Assembly (NCBI GenBank): GCA_964471825.1
Contig: CAYYKD010000002.1
Span: forward strand, 68,901 to 130,884
Reading direction: 5' to 3'
Length of the DNA: 61,984 nucleotides
DNA from: an uncultured Spirochaetales bacterium
Lineage (GTDB): Bacteria; Spirochaetota; GWE2-31-10; CAYYKD01
The notes under the pieces are model-generated. The model was not told where the DNA came from and ran no database searches. It saw only the letters and a list, made by a program, of their open reading frames with translations. Within the stretch, counting starts at the first letter, position 1; the number at the start of each line of letters is the position of its first letter. Made by a program: the position numbers and the translations under genes. Positions 1-10,484 of this stretch are shown here, piece by piece.

Positions 1-1
1 T

Positions 2-1495
2 AAACCTCAGTATTTAATGAGTCAGATACTTCAGAAATTAAAAGAAGATTCTGAGAGGTTTCTAGGGGAAAAGGTTACAGAGGCAGTGATAACAGTTCCG
101 GCCTATTTTAGCGATGCTCAGAGACAAGCGACAGTAGATGCAGGGAAGATTGCCGGTCTGAAGGTCTCGCGAATAATAAATGAGCCTACGGCAGCAGCGT
201 TAGCATACGGACTTCATAAGGATATGACCCATAATATTCTGGTCTATGACCTTGGAGGCGGGACATTTGATGTGTCGATCTTAGAGTTGGATGGCGGGAT
301 ATTTGAGGTGAAGTCAACCAGGGGTAATAATATTCTTGGTGGAATTGATTTTGATAAAAGACTTGTGGATATCGTAGTTAAACAATTTAATACGGCAACC
401 GGGATAGATCTGACCTCCGATTCATTAGCTATGCAGAAACTTATTGAGGCCTGTGAGAAAGCAAAGATGGTTCTGTCATCTGAGAATGAGACAGAGATAA
501 ATATACCATTTATTAGTGCGGATGAAAAGGGGCCGAAACATTTGCGTTTTGATCTCAGTCGAAAAGAGTTTGAGGGATTGATTGATGATCTAATAGAGGA
601 AACGGTAAATCTTTCATTATTTGCATTGGAAGATGCCGGTCTTGTTGTAAGTGATATAGATAAAATAATTCTTGTCGGCGGATCAACAAGGATTCCGCTT
701 GTAGAAAAAAAATTGACCTCTAAGTTTGGTTTTAAGATTTATAGAGGGACAGACCCAGAGGAGGCGGTAGCTCTTGGTGCTGCTATTGAGACAGGGATTA
801 TTAAAGGTGATCTATCCGGTATAGTTCTTCTTGATGTAACGCCATTGAGTCTGGGGATTGAGATTGAGGGTGGCATTTTTGCTCCTGTCATTAAAAGAAA
901 TTCACCTATACCTAATCATGTAAAAAAGATATTTACAACTGTTGCAGATAATCAGGATGAGGTGGAGGTCGTTGTTCTACAGGGTGAGAGTAAGAGTGCG
1001 TCAGATAATATATTGCTGGGAAAATTTATTCTTTCCGGTATCAGGAAGGCTCCAAAGGGAACACCAAGAATTGAGGTTCTCTTTGATATAGATGTAGACT
1101 CTATAGTTCATGTGTCTGCAAGGGATATGGATACAGGTCTGAGTCAAACAATTGTTATTAACTCCAAAATAGGACTTACAAAGCAGGAGCTTGAACTTCT
1201 AATTGGTGAGTCTAGAACCGGCTCAAGAAACGAAAATAGTGAGTTGAGATTTATCGGGTTAAAAAATGAAGCTAAGGGGATAATATATAGAATTGAGTCA
1301 TTGTCCGGTGAGTTAAAAGTTGATGCGGATTTCTTAAAAGAGATTGACGGCGTTGTACTGGAGATTAATAGGGCTATTGATGATAAAAGTATTGAGATAT
1401 TAGAGAGGTTGAATCCGATTTTAATTGATTTTCATGAAGAGCTTGTAAATCTTCAAAAAGAAGAGACTTTTTGTGTGGCAAACAGTTTAAAGTAG
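2..1495 (+). CDS. dnaK: Hsp70/DnaK-family chaperone, divergent paralog, 5'-truncated by window edge
   Basis: Motifs AVITVPAYF, IINEPTAAALAYG, VYDLGGGTFDVSIL, ILVGGSTRIP and LLDVTPLSLGIE. The frame is open upstream of ATG 17 (KPQYL aligns with the usual SPQEI before ILQKLK), so the gene starts before the window. Short C-terminus. Confidence 0.9.
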   Translation, partial: KPQYLMSQILQKLKEDSERFLGEKVTEAVITVPAYFSDAQRQATVDAGKIAGLKVSRIINEPTAAALAYGLHKDMTHNILVYDLGGGTFDVSILELDGGIFEVKSTRGNNILGGIDFDKRLVDIVVKQFNTATGIDLTSDSLAMQKLIEACEKAKMVLSSENETEINIPFISADEKGPKHLRFDLSRKEFEGLIDDLIEETVNLSLFALEDAGLVVSDIDKIILVGGSTRIPLVEKKLTSKFGFKIYRGTDPEEAVALGAAIETGIIKGDLSGIVLLDVTPLSLGIEIEGGIFAPVIKRNSPIPNHVKKIFTTVADNQDEVEVVVLQGESKSASDNILLGKFILSGIRKAPKGTPRIEVLFDIDVDSIVHVSARDMDTGLSQTIVINSKIGLTKQELELLIGESRTGSRNENSELRFIGLKNEAKGIIYRIESLSGELKVDADFLKEIDGVVLEINRAIDDKSIEILERLNPILIDFHEELVNLQKEETFCVANSLK

Positions 1496-1516
1496 TTTTA
1501 TAAAAGGGCAACTAAG

Positions 1517-2443
1517 ATGGCAGATATAGGTAAGAATAATGAGAATTACTATGATATTCTGAATATTCCAAGAGATGCAAACAATGCAGAGATAAAATCT
1601 GCCTATAAATTTCTTGTGTCTAAGTTTCATCCTGATCTTAATAAGGATGCAAATGCCTCGGATAGATTTAAAAAAATTGTTCGGGCCTATACCGTATTAA
1701 AAGATAGTGATCTTCGACCTCAGTATGATAGGGCAATAGGTAACGGATTGTTCTTTGTTCCAAAGATTAAGCTTGGTGAGTTGATAAAGGGTATAACGAG
1801 ATCCAGAGATTCAATATTAACCTTTGTTAAAATTTTTTTTAAGAATGTTGCCGGAAAAACTGTGCTGAGATCATTAAAAGAGTATAATGATGTTTCGGGT
1901 ATGGAATTTGATACTGTTTCAATACCAGAGGAATTGATAAGTATGTCCTTTAATGAACTCTCGCAACGATTGGTTTATTCATCGAATGTCTTTGTTAAGG
2001 CTAATGCATTATTAGCATTAGGTATGAAAGGGGAACGGCAGAGTTTTTCTGTGATATCACAGCATGTATTTTCAGAAAATCCTATGATATGTAAATCAGC
2101 AGTCTGGGCACTATCAAAACTTAGGATGAGAACTGCAACTGAGGTATTGAAGAAGTTGTATATAACAACACAGGATAGCGATTTGAAGATAACTATTGTC
2201 AAGTCAATATTTAGGTTAGAGCCGTCAGATAGTTATGAACTCTACAGTATGCTTGTAAAGTCAATAAATGATACTGATGAGTCTGTAAGGGTTGCGGCAT
2301 TAAATATACTCAACGAGACCGGTAAGAAGGTTGTGTATTCTGATATTAAGGATGTTTTTGGTACAGGGATGTCTGATTTTGGTCAGGGTGTGTTAAATAG
2401 GCTTATTGCACAAAATAGAATAATTAATTATTACGGGAGATAA
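1517..2443 (+). CDS. J-domain protein with C-terminal HEAT/PBS-lyase-like repeats
   Basis: N-terminal NYYDILNI...KFHPDLNK...F..I..AY.VL.D...R.QYD with an intact HPD motif. C-terminal helical repeats: VFVKANALLALG, ICKSAVWALSKL, DESVRVAALNIL. Confidence 0.85.
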   Translation: MADIGKNNENYYDILNIPRDANNAEIKSAYKFLVSKFHPDLNKDANASDRFKKIVRAYTVLKDSDLRPQYDRAIGNGLFFVPKIKLGELIKGITRSRDSILTFVKIFFKNVAGKTVLRSLKEYNDVSGMEFDTVSIPEELISMSFNELSQRLVYSSNVFVKANALLALGMKGERQSFSVISQHVFSENPMICKSAVWALSKLRMRTATEVLKKLYITTQDSDLKITIVKSIFRLEPSDSYELYSMLVKSINDTDESVRVAALNILNETGKKVVYSDIKDVFGTGMSDFGQGVLNRLIAQNRIINYYGR

Positions 2444-2916
2444 TGATGGCAAAAGACAATATTATAAGTACTACAGAGAATCAATTAATCTTATTTAGTC
2501 TGGGGAAAGGGTATTATGCAATTCCTATAGAAAATGTATTTGAGATTAAGAAAATACAGGAGATAACTGTAGTCCCAAAGTCACCAAAATATATTGAAGG
2601 GGTTATTAACCTTAGAGGAAATGTAGTTCCAATAATAAATCTTAGAAAAAGATTTGGAATGGAGCTTGTTGAATTTTCAAAGAAGAATAAGATAATTATT
2701 GTTGAAGTAGGTAAAAGGCAATTTGGATTGATCGTTGATGCAGTTGCTGAGGTTATTGTCTTAAATAATGATCAGGTAGAGTCGACTCTTCCTACCTCCT
2801 CCGGTCTAAAGGCAGAGTTTATTAAGGGGATCGGCAAACTTGTTGATAAACTTATTATTATTCTTGATATAACAAGAATTCTACAAAGTAATGAAGAGAT
2901 CAGAATAGAGGCGTAG
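2443..2916 (+). CDS. cheW: Chemotaxis coupling protein CheW
   Basis: LILFSL...YAIPI..V.EI, VPKSPKYIEGVINLRGNVVPIINLRKRF and FGLIVDAVAEV. The start overlaps the upstream stop (TAATG). Confidence 0.95.
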   Translation: MMAKDNIISTTENQLILFSLGKGYYAIPIENVFEIKKIQEITVVPKSPKYIEGVINLRGNVVPIINLRKRFGMELVEFSKKNKIIIVEVGKRQFGLIVDAVAEVIVLNNDQVESTLPTSSGLKAEFIKGIGKLVDKLIIILDITRILQSNEEIRIEA

Positions 2917-2945
2917 TCTTTTCATATATAATTTTTGCAAGAGAC
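2916..2945. repeat. Degenerate remnant of the GAGGCTCTTGCAAAAAT MITE family (weak palindrome)
   Basis: ATTTTTGCAAGAG (2931-2943) is identical to the start of the right TIR of the 19106-19286 element. The left arm GTCTTTTCA is poor. Confidence 0.35.
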
Positions 2946-2986
2946 ACTAATATTTAGGATTAGAAATAGGTTAAATAGAGGGGTAT

Positions 2987-3859
2987 ATGAACAATGTTAC
3001 AGGAAACTTATCTCCGCTTGTTTTTAAGTTTGAAGAGATTATGAAGGAACCTTCAAGATTAACAATGCAGCAATTTGAGAGACTTTCTAAGTTGATCTAT
3101 GATATATCCGGAATTTGCCTAAAGGAGAACAAACTGACACTTCTTTCTAATAGGCTTAGAAAGAGGTTGGAAGTGTTATCATTTGAAGATTTTAATGAGT
3201 ATTTTGCCTATCTGTTTTCCGGTGGCGGATATTCTAGTGAAATCGACCAGATAATTAATGCAATATCTACTAATGAAACATATTTTTATAGAACAGATGC
3301 ACAGTTTAGGGTCATGATTGATGTTGTAATGCCGAAACTTATGGAAAAGGGAACAAGCATATCAATACTAAGTGCAGGTTGTTCTACAGGTGAGGAACCA
3401 TATACAATTGCTATGATGCTTAATGAAAAGGGTTGGTTAAAAAATGGTATTGTTTCGATAAAAGGCGTCGATATTAATAGTGAAGTTATTGACCTTGCCG
3501 GTAGGGGGATCTATGATGAAAAAAGCATAAGGCTCCTACCGGATGAATATAAAGAAAAATATTTTATACCTACTGATAATAAGAAGTATAAGTTGTGCGA
3601 TGATATTAAATCGAGGGTGAGTTTTGAAAGGCTAAATTTAAAGAATGGAACTATTGACGGGAAATATACAATAGTTTTTTGCAGGAATGTGATGATATAT
3701 TTCGATAGAGATGATCAGGTCGCTCTAATAAATAGGATCTATAATTCTATGGAATCAGGTGGTTACTTTTTTATCGGACATTCTGAATCCTTGTACTTTT
3801 TGTCTAATGTTTTTAAATATGATATGATCTACGGAACGCCTGTTTACTTCAAAGAGTGA
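2987..3859 (+). CDS. cheR: Chemotaxis methyltransferase CheR
   Basis: STNETYFYR, SAGCSTGEEPYTIAM, GVDIN, FCRNVMIYFD and GGYFFIGHSESL. Confidence 0.95.
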   Translation: MNNVTGNLSPLVFKFEEIMKEPSRLTMQQFERLSKLIYDISGICLKENKLTLLSNRLRKRLEVLSFEDFNEYFAYLFSGGGYSSEIDQIINAISTNETYFYRTDAQFRVMIDVVMPKLMEKGTSISILSAGCSTGEEPYTIAMMLNEKGWLKNGIVSIKGVDINSEVIDLAGRGIYDEKSIRLLPDEYKEKYFIPTDNKKYKLCDDIKSRVSFERLNLKNGTIDGKYTIVFCRNVMIYFDRDDQVALINRIYNSMESGGYFFIGHSESLYFLSNVFKYDMIYGTPVYFKE

Positions 3860-3888
3860 ATGGGGAAATTGAATAGAGGGAGATTTGT

Positions 3889-6261
3889 ATGGCTTTTATT
3901 GATGAGAAAAGAATACAGGAAGCGTTTTTAGAAGAGGTTGTAGAACTTCTTGAGCATCTTAATGAGAAATTACTCGAACTTGAGGATGATCCGTCCAGCA
4001 AGGAAACGATAAATGAAATTTTTAGATATTCCCACTCAATAAAAAGTGAGGCTGCCTTGGTGGGTTATATGAATATGTCATCCATAGCTCATAAAATGGA
4101 GGATATATTTGAAAAAGTAAGAAGGGATATTCTTTTAGTTGATAAGGAGATAATGGACGCCCTTTTTATGGCGTATGATAGAATAATGGATATAATAGGT
4201 ACTATTCAGGCGGGTGGAGATGACAAACAGATAGATATTGATGATGTTATTGCTGCATTAAATGGGGTAATTAAGAGGATAGATCCGAGTGCCGGAGATG
4301 TCAAAGTAAAGAGTAAACCCGTGGCAGAAGATACGCGAGATGAATCTGTTGTTGATAGTATATCCGGTAAGATAGGTGATCTATCAGGTGTCAGTTTCAG
4401 CGATATGGAAAAAAACCAGATAGAGGAAGAGCTTGAAGCCGGTACGAGATTCTATAAGGTTATGGTAAAACTGGATCCTGAGTGTGATATGAAATATCCA
4501 AGGGCCTATCTTGTTTACAATAATTTTGATAATATGGGGACTGTAGTTAAGTCTGTGCCTGATATAAAGACAGAGACTGAGGATGATAGATTTATTAAGC
4601 TCGATATGTATATTTTTACTGAGCGGACATTAGACGATCTAAGGATTGCAGCGGATGTAGATCAGGTCTCAAAAGTTGAGGTGCTTGAGATCGGCAAAAA
4701 TGCAATCCTCTCCCTGCTTGGAATGGATGATATGATCTCTCAGGATGACCTGCTTAGCGAAGATGATGTAAAAAGTGCAGAGCTTATTGAGGAACAATGG
4801 GCTAGAGAGTACGCTGATTCACTTAACAGGGTTGGTATTCAGGAAAGTGATGCTACAAAAACCGGCTCAGAACAGCAGACAACCGAAACAAAAGATCTAA
4901 AACAAGAAAAAACTGATAAATCAGATAAGTCAGATAAGGATCTTTCAAAAGGGGATGCTCTTCAAAAACAAACAATAAGAGTTGATATAGAGAGGCTGGA
5001 TAACCTATGGAATCTGGTTGGAGAGCTGATTATTACACGATCCAGGTATCTTCAGATAATTGATAAGATCAATGACTTTGAGACAGTACAGGCAATAAAG
5101 TCAGAGATTGAGGATGCAACAAATGTGCTTGATCGGATAACTGATCAAATGCAGGTTGGTATGATGCAGGCGAGAATGGTTCCGATAGGTAATGTTTTCT
5201 CTAAGTTTCCACGGATGGTAAGAGATCTTGCAAATCAGATTCACAAGAACATTGAGCTTGAGATTGCAGGGGAGTCAACAGAGATAGATCGGACAGTTAT
5301 TGAGCATATTGCAGAACCATTAACCCATTTAATAAGAAATTCTATCGATCATGGTATTGAGTTCCCGGAAGATAGAGAGAAGAACGGAAAATCCCGTGTA
5401 GGAAAGGTAATTCTCAAGGCCTATCAGGAAGGTTCAAGTATCTATATTGAACTCTCAGATGATGGTAAGGGGATAAGCGTAGAAAAGATTAAGGAAAAGG
5501 CATTGCAGAATGGCCTCTATACACAGCAGCAGATTTCATCATTAAGTTATACAGATATATTAAATATTGTTTTTCAGCCGGGTTTTACAACTAAGGATAA
5601 TATATCCGATCTTTCGGGACGGGGTGTAGGTATGGATGTTGTAAAAACTAAGATAGAGAAACTTAGGGGACGGGTTGAAATTCAGACTACAGTTGGTGTA
5701 GGAACTAAATTTTTAATTACTCTTCCATTAACACTTACAATTGTTGAGGCATTACTTGTAAATGTAGAGAGAAATATCTTTGCGATACCAATTTCTGCTG
5801 TTGAAGAAACTATAATGATAAAGCGAAGTATGATTAAATTTTTTGATGAGTATCAGATCTATGATTATAGAAATGAGACCCTTGCACTAATATTTCTATC
5901 TGAATTGGTGGGACTTGATATCGTTAAACCTGAGACCCCTGATGATGAGTTGTATATAGTTGTAGTATCATTTGAGGGCCGAAAAGTGGGTCTGGTTGTT
6001 GAGCATCTTATAGGAGAACAAGATATAGTTATTAAATCTCTTGATGAGGTCTTAAGAAATAATGATGGTATCGCAGGTGCATCTGTACTTGGGGACGGAG
6101 GTATAGCTCTAATCCTCGATACATCAGCACTGGTTAAAGCTGCCATCAGGGAGTGGAATAAGATAAAGTTAAATGTTGATTTCTATGGGGAAGGTGTGGA
6201 GAAGGTGGGGCTTGATATACTATATGATAATCTCAATAAAGAGGCCGTGTCTACAAATTAG
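3889..6261 (+). CDS. cheA: Chemotaxis histidine kinase CheA (P1-P2-P3-P4-P5)
   Basis: HPt EIFRYSHSIKS (H49). P2-like MKYPRAYLV...VKSVP. TIRVDIERLDNLWNLVGEL, HLIRNSIDHGIE, DDGKGI, SGRGVGMDVV. C-terminal CheW-like domain GASVLGDGGIALILD. Confidence 0.96.
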   Translation: MAFIDEKRIQEAFLEEVVELLEHLNEKLLELEDDPSSKETINEIFRYSHSIKSEAALVGYMNMSSIAHKMEDIFEKVRRDILLVDKEIMDALFMAYDRIMDIIGTIQAGGDDKQIDIDDVIAALNGVIKRIDPSAGDVKVKSKPVAEDTRDESVVDSISGKIGDLSGVSFSDMEKNQIEEELEAGTRFYKVMVKLDPECDMKYPRAYLVYNNFDNMGTVVKSVPDIKTETEDDRFIKLDMYIFTERTLDDLRIAADVDQVSKVEVLEIGKNAILSLLGMDDMISQDDLLSEDDVKSAELIEEQWAREYADSLNRVGIQESDATKTGSEQQTTETKDLKQEKTDKSDKSDKDLSKGDALQKQTIRVDIERLDNLWNLVGELIITRSRYLQIIDKINDFETVQAIKSEIEDATNVLDRITDQMQVGMMQARMVPIGNVFSKFPRMVRDLANQIHKNIELEIAGESTEIDRTVIEHIAEPLTHLIRNSIDHGIEFPEDREKNGKSRVGKVILKAYQEGSSIYIELSDDGKGISVEKIKEKALQNGLYTQQQISSLSYTDILNIVFQPGFTTKDNISDLSGRGVGMDVVKTKIEKLRGRVEIQTTVGVGTKFLITLPLTLTIVEALLVNVERNIFAIPISAVEETIMIKRSMIKFFDEYQIYDYRNETLALIFLSELVGLDIVKPETPDDELYIVVVSFEGRKVGLVVEHLIGEQDIVIKSLDEVLRNNDGIAGASVLGDGGIALILDTSALVKAAIREWNKIKLNVDFYGEGVEKVGLDILYDNLNKEAVSTN

Positions 6262-6312
6262 AAAGAGTTGTCATAGTTAACAAGGCAATTTTAAATGATG
6301 TATTTTTAATAT

Positions 6313-7008
6313 CTATGTTTTTTGGAAATCATGTATCTGATGTCTTCTTCTATAAACAAAGTATAATATACTAAGAGCCATAAGAATTGCTGCCGGAATT
6401 AAGGTCGAGTGAATATTTAATAACTGAAAGAATATATAACCTAAATAAACTCCAAAGAGAAAACCTAGCAGTAATGTTGTTAGTATAACAAGTGAGGTGA
6501 CATTAATTGGTCTTCTACATATATAATTCCCAATTGTTGACCCGATATCTGTTACGATACCTGTAAAGTGGGTTGTTCTTACGACAGCATTACTAAATGT
6601 TGTTACCATTGCATTTTGTAGACCACACGCACCTGCCAGAATAAAAAAAGAGGTCTTTTGATAATTAAGGACTAAAAATATATATGCAACAAGGATTGCT
6701 ATAGACTCAGTTAACAGTGCAACTCCGTATCTTCTTCCCAATATTAGAGTTTTATTTCCAATAATTATACCGCTAATTATTGAACCAAAGAAGAAAGAAA
6801 GAATCGCTATTAAAAAATAACTGCCTAGAGCAAATTGCCCCTTTGCAAATAATAAGTTTGCTCTAAAGAGGAACCCTGACATAAAACTTACACCTATATC
6901 TGCGCCCTCTAACGCAATAATAGAATTAATCATACCTGCAATTGCCGGTAAGATAAATATACCTACTTTGACCCAACGGGGAACTTTATGTATCATAACT
7001 ACCTCCAA
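6313..7008 (-). CDS. YoaK/DUF1275-family membrane protein
   Basis: Hydrophobic protein with AGMINS...SFMSG and ACGLQNAMV...VRTTHFTGIVTDIG motifs typical of DUF1275. Confidence 0.8.
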   Translation of the reverse strand: MEVVMIHKVPRWVKVGIFILPAIAGMINSIIALEGADIGVSFMSGFLFRANLLFAKGQFALGSYFLIAILSFFFGSIISGIIIGNKTLILGRRYGVALLTESIAILVAYIFLVLNYQKTSFFILAGACGLQNAMVTTFSNAVVRTTHFTGIVTDIGSTIGNYICRRPINVTSLVILTTLLLGFLFGVYLGYIFFQLLNIHSTLIPAAILMALSILYFVYRRRHQIHDFQKT

Positions 7009-7137
7009 ATCAACTTCAAAATAAAGTATAGTTTTGCGAGATTTTATTTTTACTAGTTTATTTCTATAAAAAGTTTATTGCAAAAAAATTTATAATTGTC
7101 AATATGGTGGATACTGGATACTGATATTTTTAAAAAA

Positions 7138-8157
7138 TTATTTATATTTGAGTCCCTTTTTAAGTTTTGTGAGATTGTCCTGCATTATCGTTATAAATGA
7201 AAGGTTTTTATTAAACTCATCTCTTGAAAGGTTGTGAGCTCCATGAAGTAATTCCAGTGTAACACCTGTTGAATCCGATATCATTCTTGCAACCTTTGGG
7301 TCGATCAATTCTTCATAGTATAAAACCTCAATATTATTATTTTTGATATTTTCGACTAACTCAATAATTCTTTGCGGTGAAGGCTCTGCGTTAGGTGTAA
7401 ATCCCTCGTATGGAGAGATGTGGGTTAAACCATACCTTCTTACAAGATAACCAAAGGCAAAATGTCCGCCATACATAATAGTCTTTAACTCGCATCTGGT
7501 TAAGGTCTCTTTATATTCATTGTCAAGGGCCAATAGTTTTTTATTGTACTGTTTTGCATTGCTAAGATAGAATTCTTTATTCGGAGGATCAATCCTACTT
7601 AATTCGTCTGCAATTAGATTAACTATATTTTGGTTGATTTCAAAGTCTAGCCATATATGAGGATCATTCTCGTGATGATGATGTTCTGATGTGTGGATTT
7701 CTTTATTATTCGGCATATTTTCATGATCATTGTTATGTTTTTTTTCATGAACTTTATTGTAATCTTTATGATTTTTATTTTGATCATTACTATTTTCTTT
7801 ATGCTCAATCATTTCAACTACTTGACCGGCTTCAAGGATAACCAGATTTTTGTTAGTAATTGAATCTGCTATATCGTGTGCCCAGGGTTCCATATCTTCG
7901 CCGATATAGATAAACAGTGAGCTTTCATTTATCTTTACAATATCTTTAGGGGTAGGTTCAAATGAGTGGGATTCTGCTCCGGGTGGAATAATAATCGAAA
8001 CAATAACCTTATCCTTACCAACTTCCCTAACAAAGTCATAGAGTGGAAAAAGTGTTGTAATAACCTCGACTTTATCAGATTCAGTTTCTTTTTTGCATCC
8101 CGATATTATAAGTGCAAAAAAAATTATTGAGACTGTATAAATAATTATTTTTTTCAT
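7138..8157 (-). CDS. Zn/Mn ABC-type substrate-binding lipoprotein (ZnuA/AdcA-like) with His-rich loop
   Basis: Lipobox IISGC, PPGAESHSFEPTP, His-rich loop ending HHHHENDPHIWLD, HFAFGYL and YEE motifs. Confidence 0.92.
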   Translation of the reverse strand: MKKIIIYTVSIIFFALIISGCKKETESDKVEVITTLFPLYDFVREVGKDKVIVSIIIPPGAESHSFEPTPKDIVKINESSLFIYIGEDMEPWAHDIADSITNKNLVILEAGQVVEMIEHKENSNDQNKNHKDYNKVHEKKHNNDHENMPNNKEIHTSEHHHHENDPHIWLDFEINQNIVNLIADELSRIDPPNKEFYLSNAKQYNKKLLALDNEYKETLTRCELKTIMYGGHFAFGYLVRRYGLTHISPYEGFTPNAEPSPQRIIELVENIKNNNIEVLYYEELIDPKVARMISDSTGVTLELLHGAHNLSRDEFNKNLSFITIMQDNLTKLKKGLKYK

Positions 8158-8363: not shown

Positions 8364-10484
8364 ATGAATATATTGAAGAGCTTGTTATATATATTTTTAT
8401 TATTAGTGTTTTTTTTTAGTTTTGGCTGTAGGTCTGACTACTTAGAACTTTCGGATAATGACAGTTGCAACATCGAGGGAGAGTGGGAGATTTATCCGTC
8501 AATATTTCTATATTCAGATAAGGTTGATCAATCAGAACTTAGGAAGCTTTTTTTCAGATTTCCATTTAATCCGGCAAGCTCCGCTAATAATTATGACTTT
8601 TATAATGATGCAGATCATGCTAAATCAAAGAAATCCGGTGATGGCTTTGGATATGGAACAATACGAAAATTGGTGGAGGTTGATCTTACATCTGATACGG
8701 TATATCTAAGGATACCTGAGATCCCCTCCAGTTATAATTTATGGATTAACGGTGTTTTTCGAGATAGTGTTGGAATCCCGGGTAAATCAAAGGCTGATAC
8801 TAAACCGGGTTACAGGATAGATTTTTATGAATTAAAAAATGGGAGAGACTTTACCGGCAATCAAGTTGAAATTGGCATAGAATATGCAAATTTTACCAAT
8901 AGAATGGCAACAGTCAGCCATAATTTAACCATTCATTCAAAGAGAGGGTTTGAAAGAACATTTTTCATTAACAATTTTGTTATCCTCCTCGTAAATGGAG
9001 TTCTACTATTTCTATTTATCTACTACGGACTTCTCTTTTTTATGAATCGAGTTTATTTGCAGAATCTATATTTTTCCCTGTTTGCTCTATCACTTTTGTT
9101 AAGACAGATAATTCTTGGGCAGGAGATAACCTCCGTTATATTTTATGGAATAAGCTGGCACCTGAAGTATACAGTCTGGTACATTCTGATTATCGTTCAG
9201 CTCTGGCTCTACAATCAATTTATTGCAACCTTGTTTAAATATGAAGCCTCAAAACTTATATCAAGGCTGTTGAGTGTAATATGTGTTGTCTATTCTATTT
9301 TTTGTGTATTCTCACAGCCTGAGGTTTTTACGGCTACTATTATATTTCCGCAGATGACCGCCCTCATGTTTGGTCTCTATGTTCATGTAGTCATTGTTAG
9401 GGCCATTATAAATAAAAGAAAAGGGGCGATTCTTGTTATCGTTGGTAACTTTGTTATGTTTCTTGCTGTAATAAATGATGTCCTGTATAGTCACGGTATC
9501 TTGCAGACAGGACGACTACTCACTATTGGTGCATTAGTGTTTATAATTGCACAGGCAAACCTTCTGGCGGTTGTGTATACTGATAATGTTCGAAAAATTG
9601 CAATGGTTACAGATCGACTTTCGCTTATAAATACAATCTACGGGTACTTTGTGCCGGCAGGATTAACATCATTGTTTAATAAAGAAAAAACAGGGGATGT
9701 TAAAGCGGGGGATTTTGTTACTAAGAAAATGTGTGTATTTATTCTAGATATCAGAGATTTTACCAGCCTATCTGAAACGATGTCAGCAAAAGAGTGTTTT
9801 GATTTTATCAATGGTTTTTTATCAGAGTTTGTTCCTGTTATTAAGCAATGTAGGGGCCTTATTACAGGGTTTGCAGGTGATCAGATTAATGGGTTGTTTG
9901 AAAAAAGTTCAGATGGAGTTGAGGCCTCTATCAAGATAGGCAGGTTATTGGCCCGTTACAATAAGGATCGTTTAAGTCAGGGGTTGGTTCAGATCAATAT
10001 TGGAATAGGTCTATGTACCGGTGAGGTCGTACTTGGGATAAGCGGTAATCAAAATAGGATACAACTGACAGCAGTCTCAGGAGAGGTCCAGAAAGCAATC
10101 CTTCTTGAATCTCTGACTAAATACACAGGCTCTATGATAATTGCTGATAAGTCGGTTCTCGATGATAGTGAGGACTCAATAAAACTCTCATCCAGGCGGA
10201 TAGGAAGGTACTCGGTTTCTCAAGGTGTCCAAAGTGATGCCTATGAGATGATCTTTAGTTTTATGCCAAAGTCGACTCTAAGACGGCTTGAAACAAAATA
10301 TCTATTTGAAAGAGCACTAAACGATCTTGAATCGGGCAGAATAGAGTCCGCAGGGGTGGAGTTTAGCTCATTACTTCAAGAAAACCCCAATGATGAGTTA
10401 ATCAAATGGTATCTTAGAGTTAAGAATTCTATAGTAAAATCTGAAAATATCTCAGTCAGTTTGGATGGTCTATATGAAGCATAA
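8364..10484 (+). CDS. 7TM-DISM receptor class III nucleotide cyclase, subunit A (metal-binding Asp pair present; K, N, R and KGK absent)
   Basis: Lipoprotein-like leader (FSFGC), extracytoplasmic beta domain (GEWEIY, YNLWING), about 7 TM helices, cyclase core LDIRDFT...AGDQ...IGIGLCTG and a C-terminal TPR-like hairpin. Confidence 0.88.
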   Translation: MNILKSLLYIFLLLVFFFSFGCRSDYLELSDNDSCNIEGEWEIYPSIFLYSDKVDQSELRKLFFRFPFNPASSANNYDFYNDADHAKSKKSGDGFGYGTIRKLVEVDLTSDTVYLRIPEIPSSYNLWINGVFRDSVGIPGKSKADTKPGYRIDFYELKNGRDFTGNQVEIGIEYANFTNRMATVSHNLTIHSKRGFERTFFINNFVILLVNGVLLFLFIYYGLLFFMNRVYLQNLYFSLFALSLLLRQIILGQEITSVIFYGISWHLKYTVWYILIIVQLWLYNQFIATLFKYEASKLISRLLSVICVVYSIFCVFSQPEVFTATIIFPQMTALMFGLYVHVVIVRAIINKRKGAILVIVGNFVMFLAVINDVLYSHGILQTGRLLTIGALVFIIAQANLLAVVYTDNVRKIAMVTDRLSLINTIYGYFVPAGLTSLFNKEKTGDVKAGDFVTKKMCVFILDIRDFTSLSETMSAKECFDFINGFLSEFVPVIKQCRGLITGFAGDQINGLFEKSSDGVEASIKIGRLLARYNKDRLSQGLVQINIGIGLCTGEVVLGISGNQNRIQLTAVSGEVQKAILLESLTKYTGSMIIADKSVLDDSEDSIKLSSRRIGRYSVSQGVQSDAYEMIFSFMPKSTLRRLETKYLFERALNDLESGRIESAGVEFSSLLQENPNDELIKWYLRVKNSIVKSENISVSLDGLYEA

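Follow-up and report, generated by a model that had tools for sequence, protein, structure and literature searches.

A second Hsp70 and its HEAT-repeat J-protein in a putative flagellar and chemotaxis superoperon of an uncultured Spirochaetales bacterium

Introduction

Why should a spirochaete encode a second Hsp70 and a J-domain protein with HEAT-like repeats (J-HEAT) immediately in front of chemotaxis genes? The question is raised by a 61,984-nt stretch of DNA from an uncultured, aquatic Spirochaetales bacterium (assembly GCA_964471825.1), referred to here as the window, which corresponds to positions 68901-130884 of contig C2 (CAYYKD010000002.1) in a 3.66-Mb assembly of 102 contigs. Five open reading frames (ORFs) on the same strand were identified by ORF and domain reading in window positions 2-6261, and they encode Hsp70, J-HEAT, CheW, CheR and CheA, respectively. 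A preliminary description of this DNA, made from the sequence alone, had proposed that the first two genes form a specialised chaperone module for a chemoreceptor array, or that a chemosensory pathway acts through the chaperone.

Distribution of the Hsp70/J-HEAT pair

The distribution of the pair was surveyed in 400 genomes of Spirochaetota, which were placed in family-level groups (f-numbers; G and L denote genomes and loci). Relatives of J-HEAT were found in uncultured Spirochaetales and Spirochaetota genomes. Full-length J-HEAT occurs in f1, part of f3, f4, f8, f12, f13, f22, f24 and f34, and shorter forms composed of a J domain plus HEAT repeats occur in f31, f37, f44, f51 and f54. The large Leptospira-, Treponema- and Brachyspira-like families of this survey lack J-HEAT. 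Every carrier of J-HEAT also has a second Hsp70, and the two genes adjoin in all families but f37. Their adjacency in at least 13 spirochaete families (f1, f3, f4, f8, f12, f13, f22, f24, f31, f34, f44, f51 and f54) and in a Synergistetes genome firmly shows that J-HEAT is the cognate partner of the window Hsp70 and that the pair is inherited together, within a motility locus.

The gene cheW lies directly 3' of the pair in 17 of the 21 assessable genomes with full-length J-HEAT. This arrangement is far above chance, because it is found despite the presence of only 5-16 CheW-domain matches per genome. The spacing between J-HEAT and cheW is 9 nt or less in six of eight closely inspected genomes, and it is comparable in loci L038, L039, L041, L042 and L035. 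Linkage to cheW is kept in five families (f1, f3, f4, f24 and f12).

On a wider view, the pair is linked to the end of the flagellar superoperon that carries sigma-28 and FapA, and not to che genes alone. FapA is encoded 1-2.5 kb 5' of the second Hsp70 in f1, f3, f8, f12, f13, f22, f24, f33, f43, f45, f48 and f52. The order sigma-28-FapA-orf-orf-Hsp70-J-HEAT-CheW-(CheR)-CheA was found in four relatives from two families, complete in two of them and cut or without the upstream part in the other two. The flagellar module, the pair and che genes occur together in f1, f3, f24 and f12. The f24 locus reads flhF-flhG-x-x-sigma28-FapA-...-CheW-CheR-x-CheD-CheA-CheY-CheB, with a complete che part, and the che part behind the pair in f12 reads CheW-CheR-x-CheD-CheA-CheY. 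The flagellar module and the pair occur without che genes in f22, f8 and f13; for example, the order flhF-flhG-x-sigma28-FapA-x-Hsp70-J-HEAT in genome G038 (f22) is followed by Sua5 and a convergent radical-SAM gene. A more divergent Hsp70 lies behind FapA in f33, f43, f48, f52 and f45, and the J-HEAT profile finds no partner for it in these genomes.

Che genes were retained next to the pair in f4, where fapA is located on another contig. Genomes G010 and G004 of this family have the order DUF6115-like-Hsp70-J-HEAT-CheW-CheR-CheA, and genome G013 carries genes for an integrase, dxs and corA 5' of the pair and CheW-CheR 3' of it. No che genes were found near the pair in f22, f8, f13, f31, f44, f51, f54 or the Synergistetes genome. 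The linkage of the pair to che genes across Spirochaetota, as foreseen in the preliminary description, thus holds for most carriers of full-length J-HEAT and is contradicted in part by these unlinked families.

A tyrosine-integrase gene (515-1324) was also noted in locus L040 (Spirochaetes bacterium GWB1_27_13, MIAN01000134.1), 3.7 kb 5' of an Hsp70-J-HEAT-CheW-CheR block. This block, which is detached from flagellar genes, may have been moved by rearrangement or by a mobile element.

Flagellar genes upstream of the pair

Six genes (orf187, orf348, fliA, fapA, orf131 and orf191) precede hsp70 in the same orientation (positions upstream of the window are those of locus L001). They are 1-158 nt apart, and the distances around fliA, fapA and the small ORFs are 1-31 nt. 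The gene orf187 (L001 4121-4684) encodes a flgV-like protein with two transmembrane helices, the second of which opens with an Arg residue; the C-terminal part consists of a long acidic disordered tail followed by a short basic/hydrophobic end. These predicted features of orf187 agree with what has been published on FlgV (a protein with two transmembrane helices and an acidic tail). At L001 3918-3945 there is a strong terminator, with an 11-bp stem and a T run, and orf187, which comes right after it, seems to be the first gene of the operon. The gene orf348 contains a run of N at about L001 4740-4780 (13 X in the translation). The gene fliA encodes sigma-28, in which Sigma70 regions 2, 3 and 4 were matched, and the product of fapA matched the FapA_N and FapA domains.

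The two small genes that follow, orf131 and orf191, are labelled yjfB-like and TM+HTH (transmembrane plus helix-turn-helix; DUF6115-like), respectively, and both labels are positional only. The orf191 product has a transmembrane helix at its N-terminus, and its C-terminus is HTH-like. A weak DUF2802 match was found in the operon of the window, and the DUF6115 match of the TM+HTH gene in relatives is below threshold. This gene is the most constant neighbour of hsp70: the interval from its end to the hsp70 start is 1 nt here and 17-111 nt in other relatives, and the two genes overlap by 4 nt in the Borrelia-like locus.

A sub-module of sigma-28, FapA, YjfB and TM+HTH genes is located beside flgV in spirochaete flagellar superoperons (PMC11607428). 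By its gene order, the window cassette is the tail of such a fla/che superoperon, because a flgV-like gene, the sigma-28 gene fliA, fapA and the two small genes precede it on the same strand at short distances. The sequence upstream of the window had been suggested earlier as a place to look for cheY, cheB and grpE; it holds the flagellar genes instead, with grpE on contig C47 and cheY-cheB on contig C6.

A unit of 11 genes and about 12 kb (flgV-like, orf348, fliA, fapA, yjfB-like, TM+HTH, hsp70, J-HEAT, cheW, cheR and cheA) is likely from the gene layout, and we infer that these genes are co-transcribed. No terminator was found within window 1-6261. A sigma-70 promoter scan of the same region gave 23 sites, compared with 30.5 in shuffled sequence, and is uninformative on internal promoters. 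A scan of the operon region with the sigma-28 consensus gave no match before hsp70 or cheW. The sole sigma-28-like match in this region, TAAA-N15-ACCGATAA with one mismatch, lies within orf348 (L001 4933-4959), and TAAA-N14-16-GCCGATA[AT] is matched perfectly at only seven sites in the genome.

The Hsp70 paralogue

The C-terminal 497 residues of Hsp70 are encoded at window positions 2-1495 on the plus strand. The protein belongs to the Hsp70/DnaK superfamily (PF00012, E = 3.9e-160) and has the nucleotide-binding motifs and the interdomain linker. The motifs NEPTAAALAYG, DLGGGTFD, LVGGSTRIP and LLDVTPLSLGIE are present in the window part, and IDLGTTNS and the K of IKRDMG are present in the upstream part. 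The later motif GDTHLGG reads GNNILGG, with DLGGGTFD unchanged. Since the linker and the ATPase motifs are unbroken, the protein is presumably competent as an ATPase.

A 10-N scaffold gap (L001 9991-10000) interrupts the hsp70 gene directly before window position 1. The first approximately 81 codons (MSRIIGIDLGTTNS...) are located at L001 9748-9990, in a frame that differs from that of the window part. Logan contigs with a depth of about 5x end at L001 9985 and restart at 10064 without bridging the gap, which is therefore an assembly break. The hsp70 gene of a relative from the same genus is intact and encodes 590 aa.

A housekeeping grpE-dnaK-dnaJ operon was identified on contig C47 (5080-8976), and the genome has one grpE only. 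The window Hsp70 is therefore a second, non-housekeeping copy, as had been proposed from the window alone. Its fragment scores 596.6 against the NCBIfam equivalog cut-off of 648 for housekeeping DnaK, a shortfall that is weak evidence by itself, as the fragment is incomplete. The window Hsp70 lacks the N-terminal insert of about 22 residues and the acidic C-terminal tail, both of which are carried by the housekeeping DnaK of this genome. It is not an HscA either: the TIGR01991 score is 416.6 bits against a cut-off of 708.55, and there are no isc genes nearby. The preliminary description had also called this dnaK divergent. Its divergence is only moderate, with 52-56% identity to canonical Firmicutes DnaKs, and, among solved structures, DnaK from Geobacillus kaustophilus (2V7Y) is its best relative.

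In a tree built from local sequences and the 119 closest database proteins, the window Hsp70 falls in a clade of 25 sequences with support of 1.0. The members of this clade are proteins of about 580 aa, nearly all from metagenome-assembled genomes of Spirochaetota. The clade is sister to short DnaKs from Synergistetes and other bacteria, and all of these are nested among the insert-less "monoderm-type" DnaKs. In the substrate-binding arch, GIE-T-M/L is changed to GIE-I/V-E/D (M404E/D) and A429 is changed to V/T in a clade-specific manner (E. coli residue numbering). A clade-specific loop, RKAxKG, is also present. The clade lacks the Gly/Gln-rich acidic C-terminal tail, and the substrate-binding core of Hsp70 is hydrophobic.

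A candidate novel deletion at Pfam HSP70 positions 72-104 was considered and rejected, because the same stretch is missing in Firmicutes DnaKs, including 2V7Y; it represents the known absence of the "Gram-negative" insert.

The J-HEAT protein

The hsp70 stop is followed by a spacer of 21 nt that contains AAGGG (1496-1516) and by the gene encoding J-HEAT, a co-chaperone of 308 aa (1517-2443, plus strand; DnaJ E = 3.1e-20, HEAT_2 E = 3.2e-13). The J domain was matched by PF00226 at residues 10-71 (1544-1729), with the HPD motif at residues 38-40 (1628-1636). H38, P39 and D40 are invariant in two alignments, one of 16 homologues (that of the window and 15 relatives) and one of 9 homologues. J-HEAT is a class C J-protein, because neither the zinc-finger PF00684 nor the DnaJ C-terminal domain PF01556 was matched in it; the DnaJ equivalog models match residues 8-78 only.

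Membership of the HEAT/PBS-HEAT group is indicated by a HEAT_2 score of 50.2 bits, compared with a cut-off of 27.7. In the AlphaFold2 model of J-HEAT (mean pLDDT 76), the J domain occupies residues 10-75 and is followed by a linker predicted to be disordered (residues 78-121; 1748-1879), in which pLDDT is below 50 and the alignment columns are poorly conserved. Paired helices extend across residues 138-300 (1928-2416; pLDDT 80-95), forming a HEAT-like alpha-solenoid of about 5-6 helix pairs that presumably binds the client. A Foldseek search with the model retrieved alphaRep/PBS-HEAT and designed armadillo proteins, with a best E of about 2e-4 and TM(target) of up to 0.80. The modelled fold indicates a protein-binding scaffold.

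Relatives of J-HEAT were sought in several ways. A word-based protein search gave two true relatives only. A search seeded with a six-sequence alignment gave five spirochaete loci and, beyond these, mostly unrelated J-domain proteins. An exhaustive profile search gave 843 matches with E <= 1e-30, a number that is not a family size, as giant multi-HEAT proteins dominate it; among the best 150 of these matches, about 24 single-stretch proteins of 238-308 aa are true representatives.

The che genes and their output

The J-HEAT stop and the cheW start overlap in TAATG (2441-2445, plus strand), where the final A of the TAA (2441-2443) is the first base of the ATG (2443-2445). A ribosome-binding site, GGGAGA, lies immediately 5' of this overlap (2435-2440). 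The genes cheW (2443-2916; PF01584, E = 4.3e-39), cheR (2987-3859; PF01739, E = 4.8e-53 and PF03705, E = 2.2e-13) and cheA (3889-6261; Hpt, P2, H-kinase_dim, HATPase_c and CheW domains) are all on the plus strand and encode the chemosensory core, with all CheW, CheR and CheA domains above Pfam cut-offs. The successive spacers from Hsp70 to cheA are 21, -1, 70 and 29 nt, and the 70-nt spacer between cheW and cheR (2917-2986) is rich in AT. CheA contains domains P1-P5 followed by a C-terminal tail of about 38 aa (6140-6261). This tail is conserved: the alignment with relatives in f1, f3 and f4 extends to residue 783-785 of the 790.

The cassette is closed by a convergent gene on the minus strand (6313-7008), which encodes a DUF1275 membrane protein (PF06912, E = 1.2e-25) and marks the operon boundary. 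The cluster is not a complete chemosensory cluster, and no cheY, cheB, cheX or gene for a methyl-accepting chemotaxis protein (MCP) was found within window 1-7000. The layout given in the preliminary description, from the 21-bp spacer behind dnaK and the J-protein with HPD and HEAT-like repeats to the TAATG overlap, the same-strand cheW, cheR and cheA, the missing genes and the closing convergent gene, was thus borne out by the ORFs, the domain matches and direct reading of the sequence.

The genes cheY (6308-6670, 120 aa) and cheB (6673-7737, 354 aa) were found on contig C6, where no cheA accompanies the pair. This CheY shows 70% identity to the CheY of the f12 fla/che cluster, and the CheW, CheR and CheA of the window are the best matches to the proteins of the same f12 cluster. 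The C6 cheY-cheB genes are probably the detached output half of the window cassette, which is a reduced, split form of the standard W-R-x-D-A-Y-B module seen behind the pair in other families. Signalling through cheY-cheB encoded elsewhere is expected to be conventional, because CheA keeps P2, the f24 and f12 clusters carry cheY and a matching CheY is encoded on C6.

Six CheA genes are present in the genome, on contigs C2, C7, C12, C25, C28 and C30. That on C12 has the spirochaete cheA-long cheW layout. Contig C25 (18293-20047) also encodes a 690-aa protein with several CheW domains. The chemosensory repertoire is large for a 3.7-Mb genome.

Proposed function and alternative explanations

The explanation preferred here, with moderate confidence, is that the pair serves the motility or chemosensory apparatus, in such a way that the HEAT domain picks its client from the proteins encoded next to it and the J domain fires Hsp70. 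The HEAT solenoid would have one partner or a few, either folded clients or intermediates in the assembly of this apparatus; the candidates are CheW-CheA core complexes, FapA and the TM+HTH protein. ATP hydrolysis triggered by the J domain would let the paralogous Hsp70 clamp and remodel the client, and nucleotide exchange would be carried out by the single GrpE or occur spontaneously. A bolder and distinctly speculative form of this proposal is that the TM+HTH protein, Hsp70 and J-HEAT constitute an ATP-driven assembly or remodelling factor, anchored in the membrane by the TM+HTH protein, which acts on FapA and/or CheW-CheA and coordinates the motor with the polar array; the Borrelia burgdorferi gene bb0264, discussed below, would be its stripped-down remnant.

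Several observations weigh against this explanation. The fold matches of J-HEAT are generic and point to no client. The Hsp70 reading frame is broken by a scaffold gap that reads could not close, the yjfB-like and TM+HTH genes are labelled from their position and from Pfam matches below threshold, and a search for RNA-seq data from the organism turned up only three low-depth DNA metagenome runs. The pair stands alone in f31 and f44, among genes for cysS, a dehydrogenase and an oxidoreductase (thioredoxin-reductase-like), and it is also found alone on one metagenome contig. In the Synergistetes genome GCA_001443005 (LEKQ01000001.1; L118 8001-10489), the gene for a short DnaK of 570 aa and that for J-HEAT overlap by 4 nt and lie near HIT, HSP20 and HtrA genes, in a non-flagellar setting. 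The two-gene module therefore exists beyond spirochaetes and beyond motility loci, and a client specific to motility is not required by the data. Such neighbours suit a general or stress-related auxiliary Hsp70 system without a motility-specific client, placed in the operon by accident or for convenient co-expression, as do the canonical ATPase motifs and the hydrophobic substrate-binding core retained by Hsp70. This explanation is nevertheless considered rather unlikely. The linkage to the FapA module persists in about 12 spirochaete families, some of them deeply separated, which is not expected of a neutral position, and the arch residues have changed in a clade-specific way. A folded extra domain marks client specificity in HscB and DjlC-type J-proteins, and the folded repeat domain of the class C J-HEAT would be a mark of the same kind.

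Dedication of the pair to the chemoreceptor array, with the HEAT domain recruiting Hsp70 to CheW, CheA, CheR or the receptors, is suggested by the overlapping or abutting J-HEAT and cheW genes in six of eight genomes and by the frequency with which cheW follows full-length J-HEAT (17 of 21). The f4 genomes keep this idea alive, since their block retains CheW-CheR-(CheA) with no fapA in the upstream stretch read and the pair in G013 has kept cheW-cheR next to unrelated genes. The che-less families and the Synergistetes genome argue against it as a general rule, and Borrelia-like genomes hold an Hsp70 after fapA with no adjoining che gene. An array-dedicated pair is accordingly held to be unlikely. 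Of the array module suggested in the preliminary description, the cognate, specialised nature of the pair and its linkage to cheW in five families stand, and the array-specific role is only partly supported. In E. coli, DnaK, DnaJ and GrpE are needed for flagellar gene expression, and DnaK/DnaJ control sigma-32. Regulation of sigma-28 (FliA) by a pair that holds or releases a sigma factor encoded four genes upstream would be in keeping with this background and with the presence of fliA in the same operon in f1, f3, f22 and f24 (and in f8, by ORF pattern). It is quite improbable, as the pair is not linked to fliA in f4, f31 and f44 and the Hsp70 is kept in Borrelia-like genomes that have no fliA between flgV and fapA; Borrelia is without sigma-28 (PMC11607428). 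The least credible explanation, held to be very unlikely, is that the pair replaces CheY as the output of CheA, as the earlier suggestion of a chemosensory output through the chaperone would have it. The missing cheY of the window cassette is its support, whereas CheA has the P2 docking domain for a response regulator, the f24 and f12 clusters include cheY (f24 also cheB), and the cheY-cheB genes at C6:6308-7737 encode a CheY with 70% identity to that of f12.

Related systems and significance

In E. coli, HscC/DjlC and HscA/HscB each combine a specialised Hsp70 with a class C J-protein that is encoded beside it and delivers a defined client. The window pair has the same arrangement of a specialised Hsp70 beside a cognate class C J-protein. 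It differs from HscA in that its Hsp70 scores as a DnaK and groups with insert-less DnaKs and in that the partner carries HEAT repeats. The fla/che operon of Bacillus subtilis contains flagellar genes, flhF-flhG, che genes and the sigma-28 gene in one long operon. The f24 locus, which extends from flhF-flhG through sigma28-FapA to the che genes, resembles this operon, but the B. subtilis operon contains no Hsp70 or J-protein gene.

Specialised pairs of an Hsp70 and a J-protein serve Fe-S assembly (HscA/HscB), and such a pair has lately been recognised in cyanobacterial type IV pilus motility; to our knowledge, there is no described counterpart in flagellar motility or chemotaxis. No description of an Hsp70/J-HEAT pair in flagellar or chemotaxis operons was found in the literature searched, and a survey of DnaK paralogues names neither spirochaetes nor flagella (PMC11019930). 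What is new about this dedicated Hsp70 and J-protein is the cellular context and the type of partner. The genes lie in the motility locus that is conserved best, beside others that have been newly characterised (FlgV in 2024 and FapA in 2026), and for FapA a function in Borrelia as a stator clutch has been described (bioRxiv 10.64898/2026.10.14.759253). A client in the motor or the array would mean that assembly of the flagellum or of the chemosensory system includes a chaperone step driven by ATP; the finding would be ordinary if the pair were a general auxiliary chaperone. The small folded domain of J-HEAT is a usable bait for a client search.

The cyanobacterial pair DnaK1/DnaJ3 is needed for motility in Nostoc punctiforme and Synechocystis, and DnaK1 has a role in phototaxis of Synechococcus (PMC9239167, PMC13710413). 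Like the window pair, it comprises a non-housekeeping DnaK and a co-occurring cognate J-protein that share a single GrpE, and it acts on a motility motor and chemotaxis-like regulators (PMC9239167, PMC13710413). It differs in that type IV pili rather than flagella are involved and in that the genes are not adjacent, and the likeness is drawn from the published description only. A haloarchaeal HEAT_PBS protein encoded with chemotaxis genes (PMC2666748) has small repeats of the HEAT/PBS type. This protein, likened to J-HEAT by description, is archaeal and has no J domain and no Hsp70 partner (PMC2666748).

The flgB motility superoperon of Borrelia burgdorferi comprises bb0294-bb0264, with bb0264 as the last gene; bb0268 is flgV (480 bp) and bb0267 is fapA (PMC11607428). 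In the Borrelia-like family f45, which has a small genome, the genes flgV (163 aa), FapA (632), a 103-aa ORF, a 165-aa ORF and Hsp70 (503 aa) follow one another on one strand, in the published order of bb0268-bb0264 (PMC11607428). The f45 Hsp70 shows 42% identity to that of the window, both are insert-less and both have the "KAxKG" loop. It differs in its length of 503 aa and little lid; no J gene adjoins it, and neither fliA nor che genes are close by. The place that bb0264 takes in the Lyme-disease spirochaete is thus occupied, in a Borrelia-like genome, by a positional orthologue of the window Hsp70 without J-HEAT, and the window Hsp70 itself corresponds to bb0264 by position. No functional study of bb0264, which we take to be annotated as dnaK-1, was found in the literature searched. 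DnaK-1 and DnaJ-2 are listed among non-essential chaperones that full infectivity requires (PMC3485029).

The f45 genomes also encode a J-protein of 279-295 aa (e.g., G189:C1:701969-702328) that matches positions 1-122 only of the J-HEAT profile. This protein could be a diverged and relocated partner of the f45 Hsp70, perhaps the "DnaJ-2" of PMC3485029.

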